Made by a program: the position numbers and the translations under genes. Shown here one piece after another: positions 680-64,000 of a stretch of DNA of 64,000 bases (the stretch's first letter is position 1; each line of letters begins with the position of its first letter). The notes under the pieces are model-generated. The model was given only the letters and a program-made list of their open reading frames with translations, searched no databases and was not told the DNA's origin. Source of the DNA: Paraspadella gotoi (lineage: Eukaryota > Animalia > Chaetognatha); the NCBI GenBank assembly GCA_051294375.1, contig CM119267.1:1061601-1125600 (forward strand). Reading direction: 5' to 3'.

Positions 680-3600
680 AAATATCTCCCTCTCCCAGGT
701 CTACGACATCCAAGACATCAAAGACGATCTGTCCTCAACGGTGGAGGATTTCTCGACTGCCTCGTCGCTAGAGGCGTTGGCGTCGTCCGATCCGGCGTTG
801 AAAGAGCGCCTCGACTCTTCCTGCGTCGGCGTCTTTCTCAAACCGGAAGACGACGTGGTGCAGTCGACGGACGTTTCCACGGTCTCGTCTCCGCTCGTCG
901 ATGCGGCCCGGTCGCTTGCCTTTCTGCTCGGGATGCATGCAGCCGGTGAGGGCGACAAGGGATGATCGATGGGAAAGGGGAACATATGAAAGAATTTATA
1001 TTAAGAAATTGGTACAACCAATTTAAAAAAATGTATTCATTTTTTTCAATTTAAACATGCTATTGTGGCGAATCCTAAATTCGCCTCCCGTATAGCATGG
1101 TGAAACTCAGCTCGTCCCATTGACTTGGACAGCTAAGTACTCGTTCACCAACCATGAGTTCCGTTTCAATCCCCTCACTGTCACACTGGTTAAAGTGTGA
1201 TGGTGTTGGCATAAACACATCCAGTAACATGGGGTGGTCACTTCAGGTCCAAAGCCCTGTGCGCCAGCTGTCGGGAAATGCCTCACACCCTGGGCCTCAC
1301 GCATGTCCCCCCATTGCCATAAGTGGTGAGCCCTCCTATCGAACACACAACCGCTGTGTACCGTCGCTCACGTTGTTGCTTAAGGATATGCATTAAGGCG
1401 TAGTGAAAGTTACGTATGGAAATTCTAAAAGTAAATTATGAACAACATACGCATCAGTAAATATTAATTTGTAAAAAAAATTATTTTAAATGATTTTTTT
1501 TAAAAATTTTCGCAGTAGGCTATATTTATATATAGTACTATCCTTATAAAATCGAAAAATTTCAAAAATAGGCTTTTCTTAATTTTGATTGCAGATTGAA
1601 TTTCTGTCAAAAGTTGATAAAGAGAAAATATTAATTATTTTTAAAAATTCTTTCATTAAGTGGGTTAAAATTAAAAAAACTATATTTAATATATAAAAAG
1701 TTAATTTTCAGGCTAAAATATAGCTTTTTTTAATTTTTGACCCACTTAATGAAGGAATTTTTCAAAAAAGGGTTATATTTCTTTTTATCAACTTTTTATG
1801 ACAAATCCAAATCTGCAGAAAAAAAACTTTTAAAAAAAAACTGTTTTGAAATTTTAAACATTTATTGAATTAGTACTAGTATAAATATGGCCTACTGCGT
1901 AAATTTTAAAATTTATTATAAATTTTTTTTATGTATATATGTTCATTAGTATAATGTTGTTCGTTCCTCACTTTTAGAATTTTAATTAAAGTTAAATTTA
2001 GAAATTTTACTACGCCTTAATATGCATCCCACGCCTATGCCCTACTTCTCGCTCGCTCTCTGTGGCCATGAGTCAGTCTACTCTCAAGACAGTTACTCTG
2101 GCTTGGTCACCCCAGTGTGCTGTCTTGGGGGGGGGCATGTGTGGCGAATCATAAATTCTCATATCGGTCCGCCTCGCCACGAAAGCCCTTTTGTCGCGCT
2201 AGTCGATAGACGCGCGTTTATCAGAGTAAGAAAAACGAACAAAATAACATCGATAGATGAAAAAAAGAGAATCCAGGGGAAGCCGTCACGTGACCGGCCT
2301 CGACCAATGGGAGCCCGGCAAATCCCAAGCCGCTCCCTCCCTCATCCGGGTATACGAAAGCCTCATTCTTTTTTCGCGCTCATCTAGTTCGGTTGTTTCC
2401 TTACGGATTTCGCGTTTTTTCTTGATTTTTCACGATTTTCTCGTATTTCTACGTTCGAAACCCGCTCATTAGAAGTCATCAAGTAGAGACGAACGTTCGG
2501 ACAGGTCTGACAGCCGAAAACGTTCGGACATGTCTCTAAACGTAGAGAGGGACTGGAGATCCCTCGGGGCTTGAGAGGTCTAGGGAGACCGAGCGGTCTC
2601 GCCCCCGCCGCCACCTGCCCCCACCGACACCGCCTTCTCCCCCTTTACCGTGGTTTTCGGCGCCCGATTCCGTCGGTTTTGGGGACTCGGCCCGTACCAA
2701 CCGACACTTCCGTTGCCCGGCCGAGCGGTGGGGCTTAGTCCGAGGCGCCCTCTCTCGCTGCTCTCGGACCTAGTGGCGGCCGGTCTGATCATCCCCACTG
2801 CCGGAGACGAGACCAGAGGACTGGAGTCTGTCCTTACGACGATGATTTCGTCACTGAACAGCTTTAGGAAGGATTTCGACGATTTTCGCCGCGAGTCTAC
2901 AGCGGCGTTTCGACGCTTTGGGGCGGTGAGTTTTTCCCGCCAGATGGCGTAGTGGGGGTTTTAGCTCGTTTTTCAAACGCCTCGCCTCCCTCTTTTGTTT
3001 CTCCTTTATTTCTTTTCTTTTTTCGAATTATTCGATTTTTGGAATTTAGAATTTTTATTTCGTCTGATTTGATCGAAATATTTTTATTGAAATAACCGCT
3101 TTCCTCCGCCTCTTGGCATGGGGCTTTCGTGGCGAGGCGGACCGATATGAGAATTTTTAATTCCTTTATGGAATATTAATTCTATATCGGTTCCGCCTCG
3201 CCACGATCCCACCGTCCGCCCCTTTTTGTCTCCTACCATGTTTTTTCGTGGCTTTGGCGTGGCTTAGGGAAAGGGGGTTGGGGAAAAGGGAGGGGGGGGG
3301 TTCGGGAGTTTTTTCCGTTTAATTCTCGCGCTAATTTTTTACCGCTTACTTTTTTTTACATGTGACGATTCCATATCGGTCCGGTTTTTCTCTCCACTAC
3401 GCTTCCCCTCGTTTGACGAGTCTCGAATTCCTTCCATGCTGTTCCGACTCCAGTAGGCGGCCCCTCTCAGATCGGGCGCCCGCCTCGGACCGTCACACGG
3501 TCTCGCCTTACCCAGCGTCATCGATCCCACACAGTGCCGGATCCGGACGCCAAGTACTCCTCCGATTCGGCGGAGGAGGGAGAAGTTTCATCTTCGGATG

Positions 3601-6600
3601 ACGACGTCGGCAGTTTTCGACGGCTCCCTGCCCACGAGCAGGTCAGCGCCGGGTTCCAGGTTCGTTACATGTGGCATTCTCTTCGCTGCGTTGGGGAAGG
3701 GGTCTTCCTCACGGCCAACTGGAACTCGCTGGGACGCCCAGCGATCGCAGTAACGCCACTGATCGACGTCGCTTCTCCTCCGGAGTTCACCGCTCCGACG
3801 CCGGACACGTGCCTCTCCGCTCAATTCGAGTCGGCGTTTTCCAAAGGGAATAACGCGGCTACTCTCCGCTCCTTTCACGTGCGATGCAGGAGAACGGCGC
3901 TACCGCGCATGCCATCCTTACAGTTGTCGATGAGCTGCGCGGAATCAAGGAGGCTCTCCGTTCCGGCCCGTCCAGAAATGAGGTCAGCGCTGGCGTGACG
4001 CCCTTGCCGCCCGCTTCGCTGACGCGGCTCTTATTCAAGCGGCGTCCCTCAACCTTTCAGTCGCGAGAATCCGCCGCCAAATACTCGCTGTGGCGCCGCA
4101 GGATCTCCGCGCCACGCCTTTTCGCTCAGCGCCCACCGCATCTTCCTTTTTTGGTATTCAGGAAGCGCAGGTGGATTCGCGCGCTCTATTCGACGCTTCT
4201 ACGAAACGCGCTCGCGCCAAACCGCTGCCGACAAGCGCCCTCATTCCGCTCGAAGTCTTCCTTCAAGCGCAAGTGGACCAAGAAGTCTGTTCCCCGCAAC
4301 AAGTCGGGAGACGGGAAGGGCCGGGATTCGCATCCCGGCGAATGACTCGAAACGCCCCCCCTCGCGGTCGCCGCCTCGTCCGGCCGCCCAGGTTTTAGGC
4401 CTGGATCCACCCATGGACTCGAGTCTCGACACGGACCCTTCCACGCCGGCGCTTCTTCCGGAAGTCCCCGTCGGAGGTCGGCTTCGTCTCCTTCAACCCT
4501 TGGACGACGCTCGTTGGCCGAGACGTCGCCCATTCTCGATAACTTCTCGGTTTTCGCCTCGAGGGGGCGAAGCGGTTCCAGCACGCTTCCATCTTCCCTC
4601 GGACGCGACACCGTCTTTGGGGACCGAGACGCCTTGGTCGACGCGGAGATTGCGGCGGCTTTGGGGAGGACGCCATCGAGGTAGTCCCGGTTTCTCCGGG
4701 TTTCTTTTCCATGTTTTTCCTCGTTACGGAAGAAAGATGGAGGCTGGCGCCCGATTTTGAACTTAAAAAGAGCTCAACTCTCGTTCTTTCGCCGCCTTAT
4801 TTCCGGAGGGAAGGAGCCCCGGACGTACGAAGGATGTTTCGACGAGGCGATTGGGGTGCCTCGTAGACCTCCGAGATGCTTTTCTCCTTCTCCCGATCCA
4901 CGAGGATCATCGAAATCTTGCCGCTTCCTTGGAAGGGCCGCCTCTACCAGTACAGAGTCCTTCTTTTCGGCCTCTCGACGGGCCCTTGGATTTCGCCAAG
5001 ACGACGAGGCCCCTTTAGTGGCTTTGGCTCCGCCCACTGGGGATTCGATGCCTTTTTTCATGTAGACGGCATCTTGATCCTGGTTTCCTCGGCGGACGTT
5101 TGTCGACGAGCCACTCGGAAGGCGGTGTGGCTACTCAAGAAGGCGGGGTTCATCATCCACCTTCAGAGTCGAGCCCGTCTCCCTCTCAGAGCTTCGATTT
5201 CCTCGTTTCGTTTGGGACAGCTCTCCCACTCCATCGCTCTCCGGAGACGAAAATTACGACTCTTCGCCTCTGCGGAGAGTCTTTGCCAACGACCGCACAC
5301 GTGCTCGTCAGTGCCTTCAGCTCTGCGCTTTCGACGGCGGCGTCCTTGGCAGTACCGCTGCTACGCTGCAGGTTTTCGAGGATTCAACGAGACGTCTTTC
5401 GTGTCTACAAGTCGAAGAAGGATCTCGACCGCGTTGTTCCTCTCCCTCGCCGGCGATGGAGGAGCTGCGGTGGATCGCAGCCATCTCTCCAGACAGTGCT
5501 TCGCTCCGCTCGACGACCTCCTCCCGGAGGTCTGCACGCTGGAGGTGACGACGGATGCTTCGTCGCAGGGATGGGGGTTTCTCCATCAGGGCCAACTGTC
5601 GATGGGAACCTGGTCGACTGCGGATGCCCCTCTCCCTTTTCTTTGTGAAGGAGTTCACAGTTTTGAGGACCTTCCTCCAACGATTCGGAGCTTCCTTCCA
5701 CGGCACGTCCATCCTTGAAGACGTCAGCTTCGTCTCTCTCTCCTGCTTCGTCGGGGCTACAGCGGAGTCAATCTCTTCGGAGGAGATTCTCTTCACGGCC
5801 ACGGCGTCGAGGGGCCGCAAGGTGGCGGACTGGAAACTTCTTACGAGAGTTTTCCGCCAGATGGTCGACATTTTCGGTCTCCCCAGCATCGATTTTTTCG
5901 CGACTCCCCGGTCGGCTCAAGTTCCACGTCTTTCGCCTGGGAGGTGACGCTGGAGGCGGAGGGGAATAGACGCCTTGGCGCAACGCTGGGTCTCGACCTG
6001 GCTATCTCTTCCTCCCCCTCCTCTGCTGATGATGGTGATCCGCAAGCTAGAGAAGGCGAGGGCTCCCTTCTCCTGATCACCCCGTTTTGGCCGACTCAGA
6101 AGTGGTTCCAGAGCTTCCTTTTTTCCTTCGGTTTTGGTCGCGAGGCGCCTTCCGGCGCGGAAAACCTCGTCGTCGACCTCGTGTCCGGTCTTCCGCCTCC
6201 GCAAGCGGATCGCTTCAGGCTCGTCGTCTGGAGGTTTTTAAGGCGGTGCCACAACCTCTCCGACATCGACGACTCCACCTTCTCCGTCATCGTCGACAGC
6301 TGGAGAGGCTCTACCAGAGAGTGCTACGCCAGAGCTTGGAGTTCCTTCTGCGACCTCCTTCAGGATAGGGAGGTTCGAGAATCTCAAGCCTCTCTAGAGG
6401 ATGTTCTACGATATCTCGGTTTTTTTGTGCGGGAAGGGCCTCTCGTACAGCACGATCAACCTTCACAGGTCGGCCATATCAGCTGCTCTCCCCCCCCTGC
6501 GGGAGCGCCGGTTGGAGAGCATCTTTTGGTCCGGCGCCTTCTCAAGGGAGTTTCAGAGAGACGCCCTCCCTCACGTCGGACTTTCCCCTCGTGAATGCGG

Positions 6601-9600
6601 CCTCGGTTTCACGCATTCTCGACTCGGCGCCACTTCCGATCACGCCGAGGGATCTTCTACGACGCTCGCTCCTTCTCGTCGCTTTAAGCGTCAGCTCGTC
6701 GCCTCTCAGAGATCGTCTCTCTTCGTTGCGACGCGGGCTATCTTTCCTTAGCGGAGTTCACGTTCGTCTGGTTCCATCGACGCTCTCGAGGACGGACAGG
6801 GTCGGACACATGGGTCCGGCGTTCCGTCTCGATTCGCTGCCGCTCTCGGATCGTTGCCCGGTTCAGGCGCCGCGCATTTGGCTCTCTTCGTTCGGAATTG
6901 GCGCCGCCGCACGATTTTCTTTTCTGCACCCCCGCGCCGCCTTTTCGTCAACTCTCGACGCAGCGTTTCGCCTCCTTCTCAGGAGCTCTTTTTGGAGGCA
7001 GATGCTTCTGCGCCCCCGGGGTCGACACACGCTATGGCGGTTTCAGAAGCCTCGCTCGCGGCGTGGTTTCTCGGCGTCATCTTACGCGCGGGAGATTGGT
7101 CTGGAGCGCAGACCTTCTACCGTTTCTACTGCAGGACGTCGCGTGGGGCGCCCCTCCGGGACCTTCTGGGACGTTTGAGGCTTTACGTATACCCGGATGA
7201 GGAGGGAGCCGCTTGGATTTGCCGGGCTCCATTGGTCGAGGCCGGTCCGTGACGGCTTCCCCTGGATTCTTCTTTTTTTCATCTATCGATGTTATTTGTT
7301 TCGTTTTTTCTACTCTGATAAACGCGCGATCTATCGACTAGCGGCGGACAAAAGGGCTTTCGTGCGAGGCGACCGATATAGAATTAATATTCCATAAAGG
7401 AATTAAAAATTCGCCTCCCGTATAGCATGGTAAAACTCAGCTCGTCCCATTGGCTTGGACAACTAAGTATTCGTTCACCAACCGTGAGTTCCAGGTTCAA
7501 TCCCCACAGTCACGCTGGTTCGTGTGATGGTGTCGGCGTAAACACGACAGCTGTCGGGAGATGCCTCACACCCCGGGCATCACACATATCCCCCCGTTGC
7601 CATACTATCTTGCATAGGGCTTTGGACACTGGACAGTAGAGTGGAGTACTGGGGAACATAAATTGTATTGAATGACAACAAGGATATTTAGATGTGAGAT
7701 AGTATGATAAGGAATATAAAAAAATATTTTGCTTATATTATTTGGGGGAACGTATCATTAATTACAATATATTTATATAATATCCTTATAAAATCATTAA
7801 ATTTTTAAAAATTTTTTAAAATTTTTTATTAAAGATTCTGATTCTTCATAAAAAAGTTAGATCAAAAATATAAATATTTATTAAAATTTCAATGTCTTCA
7901 GCATTAAAAATAGGAAAAAAAAAGTTTAAATTCTCCATTTTTTATGCTTGTAGTAGAAACTATTATATGATGAAACGTTTGATCAGGTTTTCGCAGCTTT
8001 AACCTAAAAATATCATTAACATATTTTACAAAAGTTTTTCAGTTTTTTCGGCGAAATCCAAATTGTTCTTAAATTAAAAAAATATAATTTTGAAATTTTA
8101 TGATTTTTTATAATAAGGATATACTATAAAAAAAATTCAATTAATGATACTGTTATGGCAAATTCTTTTAAAAAGGGCTTAAATTATTTTTTATTATATA
8201 TACAAAGGCAAAAAAAACAATTGTTCCATCGCTCAATCTTTTCATCACTCCACCCTACGTGGACAGGGGTTGGTCCGCCTCGCCACGAAAAGAAGAAAAA
8301 AAGGAAAAAAAAACTATTATCCTTTTGTTTTATTTGACAGAACAAACTCGTTCTCATCCTCGATCCTCGGAAGAGAATCAGTGCCTCTCGTGGCTTAGGA
8401 CGAAAGCTTTCGCCGGCGGACTTCAACTCTTGCAGCCCAAGAATCCATTCGACGAGGAAAAAGGTCAGTTTTTATTAGGTATATATTAAGCTAAAAACCT
8501 CTTTTAAATTATCCCTCTTTACCTCCTCAAGGCGAATCCCGCCACGGATCCAGCGCCACCTCGCCGATGGGCGTGGCCGAATGCGCCTCTCATGCGGCGC
8601 CGACAGCGAGCGTCAAATTGGAAGACTCTCTTCCATCGCTGCTGGCGGCGTCGTCGTCGTTGACGGCGTCGACGCAGGAAGATGGAGGAGGGAAACCCGC
8701 CGACGCCGTTAGGATCTTTTTGCAGAGTCAGTTTAGAATTTGCGTAATGAAGAATGAGAAGGGTGTTGCGATATTCTTTCATACGCCGACACTCGCCCGA
8801 GAATTAGCGATACCTTTGCCTAGCATTTTAAAACTCCAAAGGTGTCTGGGGCCTCGTTTTGGTCCTCTTGATTCGCACAATTAAGCAAGACGGGTCGTCA
8901 AACCAGTTGTTAGAAAGAAAACATATCTGTGGGATTATTCACTTTCTAATTTCTATTTGGTGTGATGACAAACGATCGCACAATGCCCAATTCATTATGG
9001 TCTAACCTACTAGATACAACAAAATTGGCTAATTCAACTACTTACGTATTATTTGTACTTGTATTTGTTCCTATATATCGAGCAAATTTTTGTTATCTTC
9101 ATTACTTAATTAATTCTATTAGAAAAATATTGGCTAGAAGTGATGACAAAACATTTTTCTGTAATTTGATTTAAATTCATATAAAATCGTTCTCTTTATG
9201 AATACATCGGCGTTTTAACAAAACTTTAAGAAAGTGATATAGCAATATCATATAACATATTTATTTATTTATTATCATTTATTTATTATCGTATTCCATA
9301 TTTTAAAAATAAAAAATCTTTCAACTTACGAAACAAATTTGAAATTGAGAATAATTTGATGTTCAAACGGTCCAATATATAATCACTTAATCGTAATGAA
9401 AAAAAATGATTTCATTTAATTTTCACCTTTCTCTTTTATACTTTTCCTGAATTCCTTCAATAAAATTAAAATAAATTTCAATAGATTTGTCAAACGATTT
9501 CATAACTTCTCGATATTCATCATCAGTACATTGGTCAAAAGCTTCGGCTCGTCCGTTTGTTTCTTTCAACTTCTCATTTAAATTCTCAAGACTTATTTTA

Positions 9601-12600
9601 TATATGCCAAAAATCTCATTAAATGGAATCAGAAGAATAATATTGATTGTGGAAAAAAACCTTTGCCAAACATCTTCTGGATTTCCAATTAGATACTGAA
9701 TACAATTAAAATCTTTAGATGTGCACGGCGTGTGCGTAATAAAAAGTGTCAAAGACTTTTTCTCAACGAGAAAGTTTTGAAAGTTTTTAAAAAAAATGTC
9801 CATAATTTGTTCACAATGGTGTTCAGTTTTCGGGCTCGCATATTTTTTTGAACAATTTTGGAAACAACCGAGAGCACGATCGTTCACTTTTATGATAGCA
9901 TAAGCGTGAGCTGATCTATTGATAGTTCTTAAAAAAGTGACGCCATCCTTGTTGTTGTAGAGGAGTTCCATTATTTTCAAATCCAATTTACTGACAGTTG
10001 AAGTAGTCGATAATCCTAAAAAAATGGCTAATATTATAAATACATTTACGAAATACTACTACTTTCACAGGACTAAAAATCGTTTAAATAAACCTTGAAA
10101 TAAATAGACTTGTCCGTGAATGGCTTTTTCCATTGACGTAATTTCCTCTTCTATTTTGCTTCTTTCCTTTTCCTCCATTTCTTCCAAATAAACCGTTTGT
10201 CCGCTGAACCTTTCATCTCCGCCGATTTCCTTCATCTCCTCTGAATCTCTTAAAGAAAATCTGAGCCTTTTTTTTCTCGGTTTTTCTTCGTGGCGAATTT
10301 GTTTTGTCGGCGTCGACAACACGGGTTCCGCAACCATCGTCTCCAGTCGACTTTGGCTTTCTGTTAAAGAAAAGAAATAAAAAACGATACAGAAGTTTGA
10401 AAAAAATTATGTCTACTTTAAAACTCCTACCTTTTTCAGTATCGTTGGATTCATTCAAATTTTCATTTTCGTCGTTGACGATATCTCTTATTTTTTTCGT
10501 CATTGGTACCTTTTCCTCCGTTTTTTCTTCTTCTTCTTCTTCTTCTTCTTCTTCTTCTTCGGAAGTCGCTTTTACATGAACAGTTGCGTCTTTTTTATTT
10601 TTGCCCCAAATTATTATTTTTCCTTTTTTGCCGTCAATTATTTTTCCCAGTTTCTTGAGGCTTTGAGGTTCGAAATTTTTCAGAATTATTTCGTAAATAT
10701 CGTTTTCTTTTAAGTTTTCGTCTAAATGTTTTATCATTGTTTCCCAAATTGGGTCTTGGTCTTCCTCAATTATAAATCCTTTGTGATATTTTGTCTCAGA
10801 ATCAGACTGGACTATTTTGATGATGACATAATTGTGAACGACGTCGAGTTGATGAAATGCGCCAACCGTTAAATCGAGGACGTGCGCACCGGGAAAAGGG
10901 CAGTTGCACTTGAATTTTCCCGGATTTTCTGTAGGAAAGAAAATATAAATTTAATCAACGAACAACTTTTGTAATGGATCTTGATAAATTAATTTTAAGA
11001 GAAGTCTTATAATTAGTTTTATAATTATTTCGTGTTCATTCCTCAAAGCAATGAAGAATTAAAATTAAGCCGAAGTCATGAAAAATCGGGGATATATTTT
11101 CTTTTCCTCTTATCACTCTCTCTCTGTGTCTCAATATTTGTAAAAGTCGGTCAGTCGTAAAATGGGCTTCACATCATGTCATATCACGAGAAATATACGT
11201 GATAAGGCAGTCACTGTGGCGCAACACATTTGATTAACCGTTCTTGTTCTTTTAAGCGTATTAGGTTTCAAGGTTTCTCTCTCGTGTTATAAACCGATGG
11301 TTGAAGTTGTCATTAAAACTATCATATCATGATTCTCTATTCGAAAGTTTTTTGTCTCTCCAAAAGGCAAGACACCCCGTGGAGGGGGGAGGTTCGATAA
11401 AAATCATAATTCCATTCAGAATTACAGATTTACTATCCTAAACAAATACGTATGGTTGAATTCCCATGCCATCTATAATAGAGCTCATAATATTGATATG
11501 ATTTTTTTCCAAAACATCTGTGGCGAATTTTTATTTCCCGGCCCATGGCCCGACGGCCCGACGGCCCGTGCCCGCAGAGGATCCCCATTGTTACAAACAG
11601 ATTTAATCGCCGTGACGACGCGTGATCTATTGTTCGCCTTCCGTCAACATCGACTTATAATGAATGACTCTTGCCTCCCTCCTTCCCTCGCAGCGCTGGC
11701 CGACTCTAAATCGAGTCCCGATTCTGAAGGACGCGTCAAGACTTTTCTCAAGTTGATGGAGACGAACGCGAGAAAGAAGAGAGTCTCACCCGCCTTCGAT
11801 TTCCCTCAAGGTGAGGAAGAGGGAGACCTTACCCGAACTTACCCATTAGATTTCTCTTGATTCCTCATATTCCCTCTTCCCATTGATCTTCCCAGATCAT
11901 CCCATAGAAGAGTTAAAAAGAGTCTTGGCCGCCGTCCTTCTCAAACATCACGACTTGGGTCACCTCGCCGTCGCCCTCGTCGACCACGGAGTCAACAAGG
12001 TCCCTCCAGCACTCTCTCACGTCTGGCAGTCTGTCTACGACGCCGCCCGCTCTCTGGTCAAGGTCCATCAGGACTGTCAGAGATCCTACAAGGAAGTCTG
12101 TTTTCCGGTCATCGAACGAGCGCTCTTTCTATTCAACGAACTACGACCTTCTTGTTGCAAAGGTTAGATTTTTAACGTTTTTTTTATTAAAGGACAACCA
12201 TTACAATATTGGACTACTTATTGTAATAATAATTTAACTATTTGATAATTTTGAACCCACCCGTTTGGCTTCCCGACGCGATCGGTTCTTCGTCTGTCTG
12301 TGTTGTTGTTGTTGTTGTTAATTCGTAATCATCGCCATCGTCGTCTGTTCTTCGAGTCTCCGATGTTTCTCTACCAATTGACGATGGTTTCTCCATTGCG
12401 ATGGCAAAGTAGAGAAAAGTCGCGATCTGTCGAGTTTGGGAGACGCGACCAGATTTAAATCACAATTTATTTTTTTGGGAATCCGAAAGCGAAAAAAAAT
12501 AATTTTATTTTGCGACAAATGAGTTTCGAAAGATTTTGTAAAAGATTAGCGCAAAAAAAAAAAAATTAAACAGCATTGCAGCTGCGGATTTTGGGAGACG

Positions 12601-15600
12601 GCTCCGTCACGTCGGCGGCGGCGGCTGGCGGCAAATATTTGTTCAATTTTCTCGTTCGTATTTGGAGATGAGACTTCGTCTGACGAGCGGCGGAGTTCGG
12701 AGTTGATAAAGTTCGTGAATTTTGTGAAGAGGATTCGTGAAAGAGGAGGAGGAGGAGGAGGGGGGGAAAGGAGGATAAGAAACGGAAGAGGAAAAGACAT
12801 AATAGACAGATCTTTGTATTTTAATGCCAATGCGGAGTATGGTTTAGTATTTCTCTATTAAATACTAAGGGAGTGGTCCGTGTATACAATTTAAACGGTT
12901 CCCTTATGACTGTCTAAAGGTCAAGGTGAAAATAAGCTAATTTATTGAGACTACTCCCCCTCCTCAGGGTCCGACCCTCTTTTGGATCGAGCCCCGCGAC
13001 CCATTCTCCCGCGGGTCTCGATGGATTCACGTCGTCCGCCGCGTGATCGAAGACGAGGCCGGCAAACGTCACTGCAAGCCGGCAGATTTCCTCAACGAGG
13101 AAGTCAAACTGTGCGATCAATCGCTGCGGCACATGCAGATGTCGCAGCAGCAGCAGCAGCAGTGCAGCGGGGCTAAGGTGGAGGAAGAGGCGAGGGATCC
13201 AAGTCAGGTGAGGATCGAATGACGGTTTGGGACTTTTGCTCTGCGCTGCGGTGGGATTCGATCCTTCGGGAAAGTTCCGGGGCGAGTTCGGGCCAATTAA
13301 GATTCATTCCGTGAAGATGACGAAGCAGTTTTTTTGGGTTTTTTTTTGAAGGACAAAGATAGAAGGGTTTCAAGTTTTTAGATTAAAGTTTTGATGAAGA
13401 CTTAATGAAGACTTGAAATTAAAGTCGAAAACATGTAGTTTAGATCAACAACGACTTATTTTTAAACTTTTCTCATTGGTTTAAAGTTATACGCTTCGAC
13501 ACTTATTATGGTAAGCAAAAAGGGTTAAATTGTGGTTTCATTTCAAATGAGATTGAGTTCTTCAATCTCATTTACATATTGTAGTAGTTTGGCGCCATTT
13601 CTTCATATCTTTTGATACAGTTTTCAATAATAGTCTTATTTTACGGTTTTGGCAATAGTTTTAATAGGTTTTAATAATGTTTTAGTTTTCCAAATTATTA
13701 TTCAAATATTTCATAGTAGTATTGTCGCTTTATAAATGGAAGTATTTTTCTTGTTCTGGAGACTGGCTCATGTTTGATAGAAGATTGTTATTGTGTCAAA
13801 GGCCTAGCTATTAATCAGCTAGGATTTCAGGGTCGGTTTGAACCACTATGCCCTTTTCTTAGCTTGCCACTTATATATAATAAACCATCATGTATCTTGT
13901 GTAATATTATATAATGTTAAGTTAACAAATACATAAATAATGTAATTAACCACTATTGCTTCTCTTTATAAATTCATAAACATTATCAAGTGAAACAGCA
14001 AAAAATAACAATGCGAGCATTCTACCACTAACCATAAGGTCAACAATAAATAATAATATAAGATGCCCCTCCGTTAGAGTGGTGCATCGGATGTGGAAAT
14101 TCAAAATTTCCAACCAAGAATTTGGCTGCCCATTGTATCAAGATAAACCTAAATCTTATTTTTAATATTTTATACCTTCATAACATTTATCCATTCACAT
14201 TTATCAACTTTCTATGCTCTTCATCCATTAAATGATCCCACATTTCATGCTGTTCTTCCCAGCTTCTGACAGCACCAACTTTGGAGAATGGTGGCAGCTT
14301 TAAGTTGATGCAGCTTCATCCCACAAATGAGGTGTCACAACCTTTGATATCACTACTCCTTTCATGTTCATTAAACTCATTGCAAACCCAGTTTGGAGGA
14401 GACTGTTCCGCCCCAAACTACAACTTCGTTGCTTCTACAACTCATCGTCGCTCCAATCAATAAGGGATACCACACTTCTACAAGCCGCTCACTTTGACAA
14501 TACGTTACAAAATTGTGATTATCTCTTCTCTCTCTCTACTCGTCCACTCTAAAACTCGTCCAAATCTACAAACTCGTCCTAAACTACACTTCGCTTCGCT
14601 TAATTCGTCGATTGGCCCGTTCACACTTTTTCTGAGCTGTTTTCTGTGGGGAATTCAGAGGTCTGAATGAGTTGAAAACAAAACACACTTTACTCTCTCT
14701 CTCCATAATACATTTTACCATTTTCAAATTACATTCCATAATTTTAATAAAAAAAAAAAAAAAGGTTTTGGATATCCACCCCTGCTCTGCGCCTGTTTTT
14801 CCATTCATTTTAAACCTAACATTCTCCTTTTCATTTTACATTTTATGTGACATTCAAGGAACTCATACCCCTCGGACTTCTCTCTCAAATCCAAGCCTCA
14901 AGTTTCATTGGGACAACAAAGTGCCCGTTCAACTCAAGTTTCCATTTCTGCTCATATTTAATTTCTTCTCATATTTACTTGTATTTGACAAATTTTACTC
15001 CTTTACAAATATAAAACATACTTCACCCAAAGCCCACAGATATCAACCTTTTACTACCCATTTCCTCACTGCCTCTCTGCTCTTCTCATCATACTTTATT
15101 TAGTTTCCACACTCTTACAAAATTCAGCAAAATTGAAACCTACACATTACCCTATTTCTTGAGCCTGAAATCTTCAGTTGCACTGTATTCTTTTTGTCCT
15201 ATTTTATAAAAGTAAAGTTAAACTAAGCATATTAAATCACGTCTCCTATCCTGAGCGATGCTCTCCTACACAGTTAAATAATTCTCTATTTTAAATCTAC
15301 TTCTCATTGTGTGGCCATCCCTCTGGAAAACCATCCACACCTCTCCAAATACATAATCTCCAGATACCAGTGGGCTGTTATTCGCTGATAACCTATTGCT
15401 CACTTTTGTTCATAAACCAAGACAAGTGGGCTGTTATCTCTGATAACCCATTGCTCACTTCACCACATACTGCTGCTAACTCCACAAATTTCATATCCAT
15501 TTACGTTCTCTCACTTATCACTATCTTTTCTATTCAACTGTTTTATCTTAAAATGGATTCTTTCTATGAAATTGACATAAGACCTTTCAACTTCAGTGAG

Positions 15601-18600
15601 AAACAAGACATAGAATTGTGGCTCTCAAGATATTCTTGGGCAGTTATTGCAGCTTTAACCAGATGATGCAACAAATGAAATGAAAATTAATGCATACCTC
15701 CAAACATCTCCCAACCAAATTGGATGATCTTGGTCTAAAAATATTTGAAACTTCACAAACAAAAACAATTGGCCCGCACTGAAAGCTGAACTAATTCAAA
15801 AAACTTGCAGATCCAATAAAAAAGCAACACTTTCTAGATAACATTGATGCTCTCAAATGGGATGGTTAAACTTCCTTTGCATACTTTTGAACATTTGGTC
15901 ATAACAGAGACTCGCTCTTTGCACCCATTAGTTGCCGAAAACCAAGAACTATTTCAAATACACAAAAGATTCATAGCAGGACTTCCACCAGATTATCAAT
16001 CTTTCATTGACTTAGGCTTGCCTTCCACGCACATACGATATAGAAAAAGCACGGGAACGAGCAGAAAAGTGGCAAGAATTGCTCCAGAAAAATGAAAAGC
16101 GACCATTAGCTGCAGCCTGGACATCTCGCCCTCCGGAAGTTTCCTTTACCGCCGCTTCCATGACAAGCATGAAAAACTGTCTCAAAAAATCTCATGATAT
16201 GTCAATCAATAAAAAGCACAATTAGAGGCACAGCAAGAAACCAACTCAAGCATTAATGGATTACTTGATGAAAATAAGGATGAATAGAAAGAAAGAACAA
16301 GAACATTACTCTTTCCAGCTTTGAAAGGTCAAATATGACCAAAAATTTGATTTTTCTTATCCCAAAGATAAAAATTACTACACTCAAGATCACTTTCAAA
16401 ATCAACAGCCAGATTATCACAAGGGGTATCATAAACTCCGAAGAAAGATATCGCCATAATTACGTGGCCCACAAGACGACTGCCGCCATATTCAAACTGA
16501 TCACTATTATAACAAAAATAGATATGAAGAATTCCCTGACCAACCTTATTTACAAGATTATGAAAGAGGCCCAAGAAGATATGAACACGAATCTGATTCA
16601 GAATAAATCCAAAGTTTTCTCTACACAATTGTTCCACATTTCATCAATTTAAAAAAAAAAAAAAACAAAAACAAAAAAAAACAATGCATTTCATTGAATG
16701 ATCTCAAAGTTGAATTAAAATATATTTTTTAGCAGAACAAAAAACACACATAACTACTTTGTAAATTTTTATTCTTCATAACAGTTTTTTCAATTAATAA
16801 CAATTTTTCCATTCTTAAATTTATACATTGCTTTTTTCAATTAATTATTTTACATACATTTTAAGTAACCTACATCATTTTTTCACAAAACATAAAAACA
16901 AAGCATAAAAATAATCATGAAACATGAAAATTCATATCCACTCAATGTTGCTTGAACAATTGGATCAACTTAGTACAATTCAGATTTCAAATCTATAATA
17001 AATTTGCATAAAAATTATTTCATACTACTTTCTTTCATTATTTCCATCTTTGTGTGGCATCACTTTATCCATCTCATCATTCTTAAAATTTGTGGTCAGC
17101 TACTTCACTTCCTTTTTGGACTTCACAAAACGACTTCCTCGTGGTTGCCGCTCATCTGGATATGGATTACCTCTTCACATCATCTTCACTTCATGTTACT
17201 TAACTATTTTATCGTTCTTTACTTCGTTTTATTTATTTTATTTTATTTATTTATTTTATTTTATTTTATTTACCGTGGTTGTGACGTATGTAGCAGAATA
17301 ATTTGTGGTTCATTTCAAATGAGATTGAGTTCTTCAATCTCATTTACATATTGTAGTAGTTTGGACCATTTCTCATATCTTTTGATACAGTTTTCATAAT
17401 AGTCTTATTTTACGGTTTTGGCAATAGTTTTTAATAGGTTTTAATAATGTTTTTAGTTTTCCAATTATTATTCAAATATTTCATAGTAGTATTGTCGCTT
17501 TATAAATGGAAGTATTTTTTCTTGTTCTGGGAGACTGGCTCATGTTTGATAGAAGATTGTTATTGTCAAAGGCCTAGCTATTAATCAGCTAGGATTTCAG
17601 GGTCGGTTTGAACCACTATGCCCTTTCTTAGCTTGCCACTTATAATATAATAACCATCTGTATCTTGTGTAATATTAATAATGTTTAAGTTAACAATACA
17701 AAAATAATGTAATTAACCACTATTGCTTCTCTTTATAAATTCATAAACATTATCAAGTAGAACAGCAAAAAATAACAATGCGAAGCATTACTACCAACTA
17801 ACCATAAGGTCAACAATAAAATAATTATAAAGATTGGCCCTCCCGTTAGACTTATTTTAATAATATGATAATTGGCCTCAGAAAAAAAGTATAGGTATAA
17901 AACATGGTTTCTCAATATGATTTCTTAGCACTATTTTTATACGTCAGATTTAATTACTGCATTATGTAAAAATTGTTAGTTATTAGAATGAGTGCACCAA
18001 ATTTCACCTAGAAATAGATATTAATAAAGAAGTAAGATATTGAGCTTAATAAAAAAAATCCATTCTCTCTCTCTCAGTTGCCCCCTTCAGACGAATCCCT
18101 CCCCCTCGATCCCATTGTCACGCCCATTTCCGCTACCACGCCCACTTCCGCCCCCACTTCCGCTGCCACGTCCACTTCATCGAACGACCCCGAGGCGGCC
18201 ACGACCTCGACGCCTCCAACGTCTCCAGCGACGGAGACATCGAGCGTCGCATCTGAGGAGAGCGCTGCTGCACCCCCCGCCGCCCCCGCCGCCGCAGAAG
18301 AATCGGCGCCAGAGGTTGTGGAGGCGCCGGTTCAACCGGAAGTGATGACGGCGTCGGTTGGCGGAAGAAGCGCGGCGCCGAATTATGCGCCGGTAGAGAG
18401 AAGCGATATTGTGAAGGGGTGGGAACGATACTTAAATGATGTTGAGCCAATTTCTCTAATCTAAGGTTTGATCGTTTACTTTTTTCATATATTTTCGTAT
18501 ATTTTAATTTCCAGCCCCGTGACGCCGTCCCGACTCCGGCCCAACGCCGCTGGGATTTCGTGGCGTCGACGCTGAAGAGCCGTTCGAAATTGGCGCATCT

Positions 18601-21600
18601 CAAGTATCGCCTGACGGGCGAAGGGTTCGATCCAGAGTTGACGACCGACGTCCTCGCTTTTGTCCTTTCTCAAGAGGCAGTGGAGATCGATCGATTGAGA
18701 TGCGCCTTGCAGGTGAAAAGGAAATTCATTCCTCCTTCATTCTTCTTTTTTTCCTTTTTCTTTTTCCTCCTTTTTTATTTGCCCCTTTTTTTCTATTTCC
18801 TTCATCTCTTTTACTTTTTTTTCCTTTTTTCTCCTTTTTTCTCTTTTATTTCCATTTCCTTTTTTTTCTTTTTCTCTTTTCTCTTTCATTTTTTTTCNNN
18901 NNNNNNNGTCGGCGGCGGCGGCGTGGCGGCAAATATTTGTTCCAATTTTCTCGTTCGTATTTGGAGATAGAGACTTCGTCTGACGAGCGGCGGAGTTCGG
19001 AGTTGAATAAAGTTCGTGAATTTTGTGAAGAGGATTCGTGAAAGAGGAGGAGGAGGAGGAGGGGGAAAGGAGGATAAGAAACGGGAAGAGGAAAAGACAT
19101 AATAGACAGATCTTTGTATTTTAATGCCAATGCGGAGTATGGTTTAGTATTTCTCTATTAAATACTAAAGGGAGTGGTCCGTGTATACAATTTAAACGGT
19201 TCCCTTATGACTGTCTAAAGGTCAAGGTGAAAATAGCTAATTTATTGAGACTACTCCCCCCTCCTCAGGGTCCGACCCTCTTTTGGATCGAGGCCCCGCG
19301 ACCCATTCCTCCCGCGGGTCTCGATGGATTCACGTCGTCCGCCGCGTGATCGAAGACGAGGCCGGCAAACGTCACTGCAAGCCGGCAGATTTCCTCAACG
19401 AGGAAGTCAAACTGTGCGATCAATCGCTGCGGCACATGCAGATGTCGCAGCAGCAGCAGCAGCAGTGCAGCGGGGCTAAGGTGGAGGAAGAGGCGAGGGA
19501 TCCAAGTCAGGTGAGGATCGAATGACGGTTTGGGACTTTTGCTCTGCGCTGCGGTGGGATTCGATCCTTCGGGAAAGTTCGGGCGAGTTCGGGCCAATTA
19601 AGATTCTTTCCGTGAAGATGACGAAGCAGTTTTTTGGGTTTTTTTTCTGTTTAGTTTTTGAAGGACAAAGATAGAAGGGTTCAAGTTTTTAGATTAAAGT
19701 TTTGATGAAGACTCATTCATAATAGTCTTATTTTACGGTTTTGGCAATAGTTTTAATAGGTTTAATAATGTTTTAGTTTTCCAATTATTATTCAATATTT
19801 CATAGTAGTATTGTCGCTTTATAAATGGAAGTATTTTTCTTGTTCTGGGAGACTGGCTCATGTTGATAGAAGATTGTTATTGTCAAAGGCCTACTATTAA
19901 TCAGCTTAGGATTTCAGGGTCGGTTTGAACCACTATGCCCTTTTCTTAGCTTGCCACTTATAATATATAACCATCATGTATCTTGTGTAATATTAATAAT
20001 GTTAAGTTAACAATACAATAAATAATGTAATTAACCACTATTGCTTCTCTTTATAAATTCATAAACATTATCAAGTAGAACAGCAAAAAATAACAATGCG
20101 AGCATTCTACCACTAACCATAAGGTCAACAATAAATAATAATATAGATGCCCCTCCGTTAGACTTATTTTAATAATATGATAATTGGCCTCAGAAAAAAA
20201 GTATAGGTATAAAACATGGTTTCTCAATATGATTTTCTAGCACTATTTTTATACGTCAGATTTAATTACTGCATTATGTAAAAATTGTTAGTTATTAGAA
20301 TGAGTGCACCAAATTTCACCTAGAAATAGATATTAATAAAGAAGTAAGATATTGAGCTTAATAAAAAAAATCCATTCTCTCTTCTTCAGTTGCCCCTTCA
20401 GACGAATCCCTCCCCTCGATCCCATTGTCACGCCATTTCCGCTACCACGCCCACTTCCGCCCCCACTTCCGCTGCCACGTCCACTTCATCGAACGACCCC
20501 GAGGCGCCACGACCTCGACGCCTCCAACGTCTCCAGCGACGGAGACATCGAGCGTCGCATCTGAGGAGAGCGCTGCTGCACCCCCCGCCGCCCCCCGCCG
20601 CAGAGAATCGGCGCCAGAGGTTGTGGAGGCGCCGTCAACCGGAAGTGATGACGGCGTCGGTTGGCGGAAGAAGCGCGGCGCCGAATTATGCGCCGGTAGA
20701 GAGAAGCGATATTGTGAAGGGGTGGAACGATACTTAAATGATGTTGAGCCAATTTCTCTAATCTAAGGTTTGATCGTTTACTTTTTTCATATATTTTCGT
20801 ATATTTTAATTTCCAGCCCCGTGACGCCGTCCCGACTCCGGCCCAACGCCGCTGGGATTTCGTGGCGTCGACGCTGAAGAGCCGTTCGAAATTGGCGCAT
20901 CTCAAGTATCGCCTGACGGGCGAAGGGTTCGATCCAGGTTGACGACCGACGTCCTCGCTTTTGTCCTTTCTCAAGAGGCAGTGGAGATCGATGATTGAGA
21001 TGCGCCTTGCAGGTGAAAAGGAAATTCATTCCTCCTTCATTCTTCTTTTTTCTTTTCTTTTCCTCCTTTTTTATTTGCCCCTTTTTTCTTATTTCCTTCA
21101 TTCTCTTTTCCTTTTTTCATTTTTTCTCTTTTATTTCCATTTCCTTTTTTTCTTTTTCTCTTTTCTCTTTCATTTTTTTCTCCACTTGTTTTTCTTTCCT
21201 CGTCCACCCCCCTTTTATCTCCCCCCTTCCATTTACCCTTCCCCCTTTATCTCCCCCTTCATTCCACCCCTCCCCCTTTTATCTCCCCCTTCCATTCCAC
21301 CCCTTCCCCCTTTTATCTCCCCCCTTCCATTCCACCACCCCCCTCAGTCCCAAGTTTCCCGCTCCAAACTTCGGCTCCGCGGCGTCGAGTCAATGTTTAG
21401 CCTCGTCCACAAGGATCACCTCGTCCCGTCCGTCACCTATGGCGCNNNNNNNNNNNNNNNNNNNNNNNNNTAAAATGAAGACTTGAAATTAAGTCGAAAC
21501 ATGTAGTTTAGATTCAACAACGACTTATTTTTAAACTTTTCTTCATGGTTTAAAGTTATACGCTTCGACATTATGTAGCAGAATAATTTGTGGTTCATTT

Positions 21601-24600
21601 CAAATGAGATTGAGTTCTCAATCTCATTTACATATTGTAGTAGTTTGGGCCATTTCTCTATCTTTTGATACAGTTTTCATAATAGTCTTATTTTACGTAC
21701 GGTTTTGGCAATAGTTTTAATAGGTTTTAATAATTGTTTAGTTTTCCAATTATTATTCAAATATTTCATAGTAGTATTGTCGCTTTATAAATGGAAAGTA
21801 TTTTTCTTGTTCTGGGAGACTGGCTCATGTTTGATAGAAGATTGTTATTGTCAAAGGCCTAGCTATTAATCAGCTAGGATTTCAGGGTCGGTTTGAACCA
21901 CTATGCCCTTTTCTTAGCTTGCCACTTATAATATAATAACCATCATGTATCTTTGTGTAATATTAATAATGTTAAGTTAACAATACAATAAATAATGTAA
22001 TTAACCACTATTGCTTCTCTTTATAAATTCATAAACATTATCAAGTAGAACAGCAAAAAATAACAATGCGAGCATCTACCACTAACCATAAGGTCAACAA
22101 TAAATAATAATATAAGATGCCCCTCCGTTAGAGTGTGCATCGCGGAATGTGGAAATTCAAAATTTCCAACCAAGAATCTTGGCTGCCCATTGTATTCAAG
22201 TAAACCTAAATCTTATTTTTAATATTTTATACCTTCATACATTTATCCATTCACATTTATCAACTTTCTATGCTCTCATCCATTAAATGATCCCACATTT
22301 CATGCTGTTCTCCCAGCTTCTGACAGCACCAACTTTGGAGAATGGTGGCAGCTTTAAGTTGATGCAGCTTCATCCCACAAATGAGGTGTCACAACCTTTG
22401 ATATCACTACTCCTTCTCATGTCATTAAACTCATTGCAACCCAGTTTGGAGGAGACTGTTCCGGCCCCAAACTACAACTTCGTTGCTTCTACAACTCATC
22501 GTCGCTCCAATCAATAAGGGATACCACACTTCTACAAGCCGGCTCACTTTGACAATACGTTACAAAATTGAGTATCTCTGTCTCTCTCCTCTACTCGTCC
22601 AACTCTAAAACTCGTCCAAATCATTACAACTCGTCCTAAATACACTTCGCTTCTTTGCTTAATTCGTCGATTGACCCGTTCACCTTTGTGCTGAGCGTGT
22701 TTTTCTTGTGGGGAATTCAGAGGTCTGATATGAGGTTAGAAACAAACACACTTTACTCTCTCTTCTCCATAATACATTTTACCATTTTACAAATTACATT
22801 TCATAATTTAATAAAAAAAAAAAAAAAAAAGGTTTTTGGATATCCACCCCTGCTCTGCGCCTGTTTTTCCATTCATTTTAAACCTAACATTCTCTTTTCA
22901 TTTTTACATTTTTTGTGACATTCAAGGAACTCAATACCCCTCGGACTTCTCTCTCAAATCCAAGCTCAAGTTTCATTGGGACAACAAGTGCCGTTCAACT
23001 CAGTTTCCAGTTTCTGCTCATATTTAATTTCTTCTCTATATTTACTTGTATTTGACAAATTTTACTCCTTTACAAAATAAACAATACTTCACCCAAAGCC
23101 ACAGATATCAACCTTTACTACCCATTTCCTCACTGCCTCTCTGCTCTCTCATCATACTTTATTTAGTTTCCACACTCTTACTAATTCAGCAACAATTGAT
23201 CTCTCTCTTTTTTCGTCTGCGGATGGCAGGGTCTGCTCGGTTATCCCGACATCTCCGCCGTCACCCTCTCGAACGACTCCGGCCACAACAACAACAAGCT
23301 GGCCAACGTGGGCGTGGCCGCCGCTGGCTGCGTCTCGGGCTTGGGAGGACAAGGCGGATGCGGAAGAAGCGTCCCGCCGCCACTGGCCGACGTCGAACTC
23401 ATTCCGCCATCTGGTGAGGGAAAGAGAGAGAGACCGACCGACCGACCGTCTTCATTTTTAAACGATTATCATTGCAGATCGCGCGGTGCTGAAGTTGATG
23501 TACTCTCATCTACATCACTGGTTTCTCGATTCTCTGCGACGAGAGTTGCTCTCCGTCGAAAATTATTACAAAGAGGTAAGTTAAAAACCTTAAACTCTCT
23601 CTGAATTATTAATAATATTATTCGTAATAAACAATAGTAAGAAAGCGAATTAAAATTGGTTTTCTTTTCTCAAGAACGGCATCCGCCCTTCCCCGCCTTG
23701 TCACGACAACGGCGCCAAGGACGACCTTACCCTCGGTCTTCTGCCTCAGGCGCGATTCATCCTAACTTACCTTCAGCTTCTCTCGTCGAGCGCAAGCGAT
23801 CACCCGGCCTCCGCATCGCCGCTCATTGACGCCGGGTGCCTGGCCTTGTGCCAGACCGTCTTGAGATTGGCCGGACCAGAAGAGGGTAAAGTTTAGGCTG
23901 GCAATTGACATTTCCATTCCAAGGATATGTAAGAGATGATTATTTAATATGATCTTAAATGAGATTGAATATCTCAATCTCATTTACATATTGTAGTATT
24001 CATACTATTCATAGTATTCATATTCATAGTTAAACTGTTTACTTAGACTATACTTATCTCATCTTAGGAGAATATACCCTCCTATAGATACTATTTATAG
24101 GTTGTCACGTGACTAGTGTGGTCACCGAGGTTTAAGGGAAACAATGAATTTTAAGATAAAAATAAATTAACAATGATAAGAAGTAATTATTACTCATCGG
24201 TAAATTCAGTTTTTGGATGATCTTAGTCGTGGAATTGTCTCCATTACTAGTAGACGATCCGAATCTTGAGCGGAAGGAACGTCTGTCTATTAAGTATTAT
24301 AACTAGTTTTATGAAGCAATTCATACGTATTGTGTTAGTATATTAAGTTGCGTGTTTAAAACTAAAATTCGACAAACAGACAAAAAGTTGAGTTAAAATG
24401 ATCGAATCTATTATAATTACCTACTATGACCTCCATAGGGAAACTCCCCGCCCCTTCAACCCCCGTCCAAGTTATCGTTGAGGAGCCTCGAATCAAACCA
24501 GCTCAGCCCCACCCGTCAGTCTCGGGCCCCGACCAAGCTGCCCTCATGAAGGTGGGATCTCGGGTCGTGAGGGGCTTGGACTGGAAGTGGGGCGATCAGG

Positions 24601-46785: not shown

Positions 46786-47797
<1,012 letters not shown>

Positions 47798-60906: not shown

Positions 60907-64000
<3,094 letters not shown>

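Follow-up and report, generated by a model that had tools for sequence, protein, structure and literature searches.

The window, the whole 64,000-nt stretch of Paraspadella gotoi DNA that was analysed, contains a four-exon spliced gene on the minus strand that runs antisense through introns of HERC2 (Table 1). Its exons join into 1,494 nt encoding 497 amino acids and a terminal TGA with no internal stop, and its three introns (1,332, 70 and 78 nt) all have GT..AG ends and lie in phase 1. The gene is real, and the original prediction, which had joined a small exon beginning MEKPSSIG to three open reading frame fragments, described it correctly. The window also carries an ERF4/GOLGA7-type gene and a SIK3-type kinase gene, and its introns are short.

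Table 1. Positions in the window of the antisense gene, its motifs and the interleaved HERC2 exons.
Feature	Positions	Strand	Content and evidence
5' UTR of exon 1	12397–12560	-	RNA-like contig over 12261–12560; no upstream ATG; upstream in-frame stops
Coding exon 1, aa 1–45	12261–12396	-	acidic/Thr-rich; inside the 805-nt HERC2 intron; hydrophobic signal-like stretch absent
Intron 1, 1,332 nt	10929–12260	-	joint 10928/12261 in X7/X8; contains two HERC2 exons on the opposite strand
Exon 2, aa 46–211	10431–10928	-	CxC-x5-H motif (aa 53–61), region of about 120 aa, then poly-Glu tract
Exon 3, aa 212–300	10094–10360	-	charged linker with basic stretch KPRKKRLR at 10283–10260
Exon 4, aa 301–497	9423–10015	-	predicted AID/APOBEC-like deaminase domain
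Exon-4 motif NC	9857–9852	-
Exon-4 motif HxE	9818–9810	-
Exon-4 motif PC-x6-C	9728–9702	-
3' UTR	9207–9422	-	RNA-like contig down to 9207; AATAAA hexamers
HERC2 exon before the 2,967-nt intron that holds exons 2–4	8532–8726	+	joint 8726/11694; open spliced frame
HERC2 exon in intron 1	11694–11810	+	joints; open spliced frame
HERC2 exon in intron 1	11896–12162	+	joints; open spliced frame
HERC2 exon following the 805-nt intron in which exon 1 lies	12968–13200 (end approximate)	+	joint 12160/12966

All three joints (10014/10093, 10360/10431 and 10928/12261) were present in contigs of runs X7 and X8 at a depth of about 10, with CT..AC ends on the plus strand, and were absent from the contigs of both DNA runs compared (X1 and X5). 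X7 and X8 agree number for number in contig sizes and depths and are therefore probably one data set filed twice; the run records do not state RNA, and X7 was classed as RNA because its joints are spliced and its introns are empty. The transcript is split over two contigs of 605 and 1,195 nt, with the break near a GAA repeat, which jointly span 9207–12560. Stranded reads had been proposed as the check on these junctions; the joints themselves were all recovered, and the minus strand was deduced from the ends of the introns together with the open frame, as the contigs carry no strand information.

The predicted interleaving with HERC2 was confirmed and is mutual: exons 2–4 lie within one HERC2 intron and exon 1 within another, and two HERC2 exons lie inside intron 1. 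Plus-strand GT..AG joints of HERC2 at 8726/11694 (2,967 nt), 11808/11894 and 12160/12966 (805 nt), with a depth of 181.7, enclose the exons of the antisense gene, and DNA contigs bridge 8240–9672 and 11404–12733, so that the arrangement is not an assembly join. The plus-strand gene was assigned to HERC2 from an open spliced frame between a weak cytochrome-b5 match upstream and same-strand matches to MIB_HERC2, UBA, Cul7, RCC1 and HECT domains downstream, an order that we take to be that of HERC2; no solved-structure relative of the intervening HERC2 exon was found. The layout would most likely have arisen by insertion into HERC2 introns, for which a functional link would not be required.

The zinc-deaminase site claimed for the last exon is intact. 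His367, Glu369, Cys398 and Cys405 are all present in H367-C368-E369 and P397-C398-x6-C405, giving the signature of the zinc deaminase superfamily, in which helix 2 carries HxE and loop 5/helix 3 carries PC-xn-C. They are accompanied by YAIIKV in strand 1, GCFQN (aa 350–354) and IPFNEIF (aa 430–436), and KPRKKRLR, originally proposed as a putative nuclear localization signal, occupies aa 238–245. Two features of AID/APOBEC-like deaminases (AADs) are found here: Asn354 opens loop 3, in keeping with the definition in Krishnan 2018 (PMC5889660), and loop 7 has an aromatic residue for the cytosine pocket, either Phe436 in the Tyr column or Tyr439 in an alternative register. The IxxxxLY motif originally read here has its counterpart in IPFNEIF, with the modification that strand 4 ends in Glu434, where most AADs have a basic residue. 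Judged by hydropathy only (maximum 1.3 in the first 60 aa), the acidic, polar N-terminus lacks the signal peptide of SNADs. Across all six frames of the window, each motif pattern has a single match, which falls in this domain. With patterns drawn up when the sequence was already in view, the generic HxE..PC-xn-C order arose in 48 of 20,000 shuffles of the domain, in 3 of 20,000 when a hydrophobic strand 3 was added and in 0 of 20,000 when the NC motif was added as well.

By sequence the gene is an orphan, as the searches made found no close relative of the last exon. None of 43 candidates of similar length and none of 739 longer ones proved to be homologues, nor did any of 105 metagenome pattern matches; phages and plasmids gave no match, and NCBIfam gave nothing relevant. 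No true relative was present among 1.84 billion representatives, which is unlike the expectation for a conserved housekeeping deaminase. Three matches among these representatives were repeat proteins and were discarded, and sequence matches in the PDB were to FYVE domains or other chance matches. A literature check, itself a weak one, found no description of this gene.

Comparisons at the level of families point to the AID/APOBEC-like affinity that had been proposed, with no significant hit among them. The trimmed core matched one of 24,736 Pfam families, NAD1, an APOBEC-clan family whose alignment covers the zinc motif region, at E 0.022 and 15.3 bits, below the cut-off of 27; the Pfam match of a giant-virus protein that bears the motifs of the cnidaria-algae type was similarly weak (E 0.006). 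The top ESM Atlas cluster scored 0.93, with 200 of 256 features shared and a recognition of 2476, and first matches of at least 0.9 also arise for 4–10 of 100 shuffled proteins. All 10 Atlas clusters listed were APOBEC/SNAD-type or unnamed, with no TadA, dCMP or CDA cluster among those listed. When aligned by MAFFT with 28 AID/APOBEC-like proteins, the H, E, PC, C, strand 4, helix 4 and helix 5 fell in register. An unguided structure model (pLDDT 44.5) has a strand-helix-strand-helix-strand-helix order around the motifs, and no deaminase was among the 50 matches listed for its fold. The deaminase fold is a five-stranded sheet with strand order 2-1-3-4-5. The fold check proposed with the prediction yielded a deaminase match only from an AAD-guided model (pLDDT 56.6, TM 0.31–0.40), whose match to APOBEC/AID (Z 6.8, rmsd 4.2, 121 aligned) is circular because the model was built from an AAD alignment. 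Both models have helices at the places of helix 4, between strands 4 and 5, and of the two helices after strand 5, with pLDDT below 60 there.

The last exon thus probably encodes a fast-evolving, non-secreted AID/APOBEC-like zinc deaminase, with motifs nearest the APOBEC4/cnidaria-algae branch, which is predicted to convert C to U on single-stranded nucleic acid. From what is known of the family, His367, Cys398 and Cys405 would bind zinc, Glu369 would shuttle a proton, and Asn354 in loop 3, together with the loop-7 aromatic Phe436 or Tyr439, would hold the flipped-out cytosine. More tentatively, the orphan-level divergence may reflect host-parasite conflict, in which case the target might be foreign or mobile nucleic acid, and the N-terminal region and charged linker might set location or partners. 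The suggested action on retroelements was not borne out in a coarse test that leaves editing possible: in one DIRS family, G>A and C>T places in contigs, from which rare copies are dropped, numbered 65/70, 59/57, 38/41 and 61/57, with no G-to-A strand skew in 4 of 4 runs.

This balance, together with the APOBEC4-like motifs and Glu434 at the usual basic position, would also fit a protein of AID/APOBEC-like fold that is catalytically silent or nearly so and whose role would be nucleic-acid binding or transcriptional modulation, along the lines proposed for vertebrate APOBEC4. Deaminase activity was not detectable for human APOBEC4 according to the abstract of PMC4889046, and the acidic linker might act as a competitor of nucleic acid. 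However, the protein retains all of its zinc ligands along with the catalytic Glu, the Asn of loop 3 and an aromatic residue in loop 7, and across four runs, which represent very few individuals, exon 4 had no listed coding variant, against three amino-acid-changing ones in exon 3. We consider a silent protein unlikely.

A closer match to free-nucleotide deaminases had been named as an outcome that would speak against the prediction, and profile scores do not separate the domain from dCMP deaminases. Over the whole domain, the HMM scores were 1.7 bits for the AAD profile (80 of 1,000 shuffles as high) and 5.7 bits for dCMP deaminases (1 of 1,000), and the pairwise z values were 3.0 and 5.45, respectively. 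Purpose-built AAD profiles ranged from 1.7 to 7.7 bits, and the 22-sequence invertebrate-type profile scored below one with 8 of 23 sequences, which omitted HTE forms and one sequence without the motif; hhalign to a five-sequence AAD profile gave a probability of 0.4%. The better scores of the N-terminal half against dCMP deaminases, and the likeness of G-x3-N in strand 2 to the GYN motif of the dCMP/TadA group, would suit a divergent TadA/ADAT or dCMP-deaminase paralogue acting on tRNA or free nucleotides. Among 139 pairwise targets, too, a dCMP deaminase scored highest (z 7.3). Yet the alignment to it is out of register at HxE, and the region after the second Cys, which was not motif-selected, favours the 22 invertebrate-type AADs (z 2.5; 3 of 200 shuffles) over the 18 dCMP deaminases (z -0.8). 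All 18 of these controls have Cx2C, where this protein has Cx6C, and no match to Pfam dCMP_cyt_deam_1 or MafB19 was obtained at E up to 10, while both real dCMP-type proteins used as controls matched Pfam at E 1e-14 or better. Together with the Atlas clusters listed, these differences make such a paralogue less likely still than a silent protein. Least likely of all is that this real orphan gene encodes something other than a deaminase and resembles one by chance, a reading that would agree with the missing alignment-based and unguided fold matches and with the Atlas scores of shuffled proteins but is opposed by the rarity of the motif set in shuffles, the Atlas recognition and shared features, and the single Pfam match to an APOBEC-clan family.

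For the region encoded by exon 2, no family was found by Pfam, Atlas, hhalign or HMM tests. A degenerate second deaminase domain was considered for it and rejected (hhalign 0.3%; HMM scores equalled by 86–89 of 300 shuffles; pairwise z 0.4–1.1; no usable Atlas match). We also consider, at low probability, that the protein could be the first known member of a new animal branch of APOBEC4-type deaminases, an active single-copy editor in which the second zinc site is split. In that arrangement, CxC-x5-H would cross a 275-residue insert, which carries a new domain and the acidic linker, and come together with His337 and Cys355 near the substrate loops. Modelling the exon-2 region in complex with the deaminase domain and zinc gave a score of 0.21, which is not counted as evidence. 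Such a protein, if this reading is true, would offer a tractable handle on what APOBEC4-type enzymes act on, and base editing would gain a new scaffold.

Invertebrate AID/APOBEC-like enzymes have been described (PMC5956068, PMC5889660), so that the enzyme class and its occurrence in invertebrates are already published. What is likely new is this highly divergent AID/APOBEC-like variant, with an N-terminal region for which no family was found. Mutators of the AID/APOBEC type that occur outside vertebrates change rapidly in sequence and tend to go unnoticed; the present one stays below the Pfam cut-offs, was missed by all the sequence searches made here, and lies concealed on the antisense strand of a ubiquitin-ligase gene that ranks among the most conserved. 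Should it be active, it would represent a cytosine editor of deep divergence that bears APOBEC4-like motifs, and would show that annotated introns can conceal genes of this kind. Mutual interleaving is an unusual arrangement, and it allows transcriptional interference to be tested. According to the abstract of PMC3814207, nearly 10% of Drosophila genes lie in nested structures; the gene described here likewise sits within the introns of another on the opposite strand, but the nesting is mutual, each gene having exons in an intron of the other.

Among known deaminases, SNAD4 of sponges and other secreted AADs share the order of the catalytic motifs (PMC5889660), but the protein described here has no signal peptide, has Cx6C rather than Cx2C and lacks the loop-7 Trp. 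The classical AADs of lophotrochozoans, echinoderms and cnidarians form the Lop-Ech-Cni clade (SpAIDL, LaAIDL; Liu et al. 2018, PMC5956068), which tolerates variable Cys spacing. Twenty unnamed proteins that bear the NYS and WP motifs of this clade align in register with the domain over the whole core at 14–26% identity, and the resemblance is strongest in helix 4, strand 5 and helix 5. However, neither the NYS before CxnC nor the WP before strand 1 is found here, where THT precedes PC. In addition, proteins of this type are mostly single domains of 180–250 aa, unlike the 497-aa protein, and the clade is often expanded, whereas no close paralogue was found here at 90% likeness.

The closest likeness in motifs is to the cnidaria-algae-APOBEC4 clade (Krishnan 2018, PMC5889660; Iyer et al. 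2011, PMC3239186), which we compared by eye from Table S1 and Figs S1, S13 and S14 of the former and Table 1 of the latter. Viral scans yielded one protein of the cnidaria-algae type, L317, to which BLASTP gave no significant match (E 3.5 or worse), and a closer relative could stand elsewhere in the Krishnan 2018 supplement. In the clade, conserved Cys and His residues of helix 1/loop 1 make up a second zinc site, and helix 6 carries RxxxD. Here, by contrast, His337 precedes strand 1, no Cys lies between aa 55 and 351, CxC-x5-H stands about 275 aa upstream, the only RxxxD matches are at aa 15 and 16, and about 300 aa of unrelated sequence form the N-terminus. The PC-x6-C spacing had been called APOBEC4-type; it recurs in the APOBEC4 rows of the supplement, which have the same insert of six residues followed by Ile between the zinc cysteines, although a long spacer is not specific to APOBEC4, as Table S1 gives n=2–13 for the Lop-Ech-Cni clade and 2–25 for the cnidaria-algae clade. 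The absence of a signal peptide is shared with the clade, as are the CxxC insert, a hydrophobic strand 3 with Thr before xxPC, a Pro that ends strand 4, a Glu in strand 5 and an acidic-aromatic pair in the next helix; as in a Nematostella row, the Pro is followed by G-x-Y. Finally, loop 3 opens in both with NC, here Asn354-Cys355, a pair that just 2 of 116 motif-bearing AADs of other types in the reference set possess.

The minus-strand gene interleaved with HERC2 is real, intact and highly divergent. Recomputation from the sequence reproduced the original prediction exactly: four exons, separated by introns of 1332, 70 and 78 nt with GT..AG ends and phase 1 throughout, splice into a frame of 497 codons plus a stop. 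Contigs from four of the 11 runs (DNA runs X1 and X5, RNA-like runs X7 and X8) were compared over positions 7800-13600. All three predicted junctions were present in X7 and X8, with CT..AC ends on the plus strand and a depth of about 10, and absent from X1 and X5; the transcript extends over at least 9207-12560, in two X7/X8 contigs. X7 and X8 are probably one RNA data set, because their contigs are identical, and since contigs carry no strand information, the gene's strand was inferred from intron ends and frame. In X1, depth over the gene was about 25-55 (90% likeness, repeat-bearing bins excluded), that of the adjacent HERC2 exons, which suggests the lack of a close paralogue. Three variants among the four runs (10324, 10325 and 10346) each change an amino acid. 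They all fall in exon 3, the linker, and codon 224 contains two of them; none was listed in exon 4.

The predicted antisense interleaving was borne out by the joints of both genes. Exons 2-4 sit within a 2967-nt host intron and exon 1 within an 805-nt one, intron 1 contains two host exons, and the exons of the two genes do not overlap. The host transcript reached a depth of 181.7 in X7/X8 contigs. The arrangement is not a mis-assembly, because DNA contigs bridge both junction areas. From its domain matches (weak cytochrome-b5 upstream; MIB_HERC2, UBA, Cul7, RCC1 and HECT downstream) and the domain order of HERC2, we assume the host to be HERC2. Nearby, repeated blocks in which the HERC2 exon near 12968 is duplicated, together with single-base insertions, look like assembly error or uncollapsed haplotypes.

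Features of the window and of viral or metagenomic sequences met in the reference searches
Feature	Position	Strand	Remark
New gene, exon 1	12396-12261	minus	136 nt
New gene, exon 2	10928-10431	minus	498 nt
New gene, exon 3	10360-10094	minus	267 nt
New gene, exon 4	10015-9423	minus	593 nt
Host joints	8460/8529, 8726/11694, 11808/11894, 12160/12966	plus	GT..AG; RNA-like contigs
Host open spliced frame	8340-12162	plus	
Repeated blocks	12611-15136 vs 17287-23199		0.5-1.8 kb, 93-96% identity
N gaps	18898-18907, 21446-21470		adjoin repeated blocks
Single-base insertions	12990, 13006		4 of 4 runs compared
DIRS-like copy 1	about 3400-7200		in HERC2 intron; frames interrupted
DIRS-like copy 2	about 54000-57400		high-copy family; frames interrupted
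Tyrosine-recombinase N-terminal domain	56318-57073		in DIRS-like copy 2
Two long frames within HERC2	32496-33610	minus	no Pfam family matched; possibly mobile-element remnant
ERF4/GOLGA7-family gene	46786-47430		downstream of HERC2
SIK3-type kinase gene	60907-64000		downstream of HERC2
Giant-virus genome bin protein	L317:472-1314	minus	motif set of cnidaria-algae AAD clade
Deaminase-like ORFs	L032:527-1150, L089:305-1294, L189:157-801		weak AID/APOBEC Pfam matches

Exon 4 probably encodes an AID/APOBEC-like deaminase (AAD) domain. Its ESM Atlas neighbours were APOBEC-type clusters (best score 0.93), which we treat as a lead because only 11-26% of top-cluster members carry these Pfam families. 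The trimmed core had a single Pfam match, NAD1 (E 0.022, below cut-off); the giant-virus protein scored about as weakly and had no further relative in the viral collection searched. Reference AADs were gathered by pattern scans and profile search (148 matches, 120 listed), "invertebrate-type" denoting NYS and WP motifs rather than source organism. In a MAFFT alignment with 28 of the 120 listed, zinc ligands, strand 4, helix 4 and helix 5 were in register. Atlas neighbours, NAD1 match and register point to AADs.

The alignment statistics were weak, and whole-domain scores were higher for free-nucleotide deaminases than for AADs: 5.7 bits against 18 dCMP deaminases (1/1000 shuffles as high) versus 1.7 bits against 22 invertebrate-type AADs (80/1000), with mean pairwise z of 5.45 versus 3.0. 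AADs scored better only over the half of the domain that follows the second Cys (z 2.5, 3/200 shuffles, versus -0.8 for dCMP deaminases). No sequence relative of exon 4 was detected among similar-length and longer proteins, representatives, metagenomes, phages or plasmids. The proposed fold check was divided: a single-sequence model (pLDDT 44.5) had no deaminase among the matches listed, whereas an alignment-guided model (pLDDT 56.6) matched APOBEC1, APOBEC3 and AID best (Foldseek E 5.6e-4; VIA Z 6.8 for AID versus 3.9-4.0 for dCMP deaminases), circularly through its guide alignment.

The expressed product, which has His367, Glu369, Cys398, Cys405, Asn354 and a loop-7 aromatic, is rather likely an active cytosine deaminase. 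From family chemistry in the available text of PMC5889660, a zinc-activated water would deaminate a cytosine that single-stranded nucleic acid presents in flipped-out form. Activity should not be assumed, because human APOBEC4 showed no deaminase activity in vitro (PMC4889046, available text). Less firmly, a defence role may be proposed because the sequence is extremely divergent and because AADs of a sea urchin and a brachiopod are active and infection-induced (PMC5956068, available text). The suggested action on DIRS retroelements found no support: in a coarse test on the element at 54000-57300, its copies differed by changes that were balanced between the strands in all four runs. The two DIRS-like copies are 65-71% alike where they share parts.

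AADs are already known from invertebrates; new here are an orphan sequence that mixes clade features, an N-terminal half without family match and the mutual interleaving with HERC2. A CxC-x5-H at aa 53-61 resembles the APOBEC4 loop-1 CxxCPxH but lies 275 residues away, and the remainder of exon 2 matched no family by Atlas, Pfam, hhalign, HMM or pairwise comparison. Judged by the available text of PMC5889660, the exon-4 domain lacks the features that define the Lop-Ech-Cni clade, and the protein lacks those that define SNADs. The domain is not placed in the cnidaria-algae-APOBEC4 clade because that clade's helix-1/loop-1 cysteines and RxxxD are missing. By eye, it resembles this clade, as described in the available parts of PMC5889660 and PMC3239186, in four respects: loop 3 starts with an NC motif, an insert separates the zinc cysteines (x6 spacing, as in APOBEC4), strand 4 ends in Pro and strand 5 contains a Glu.
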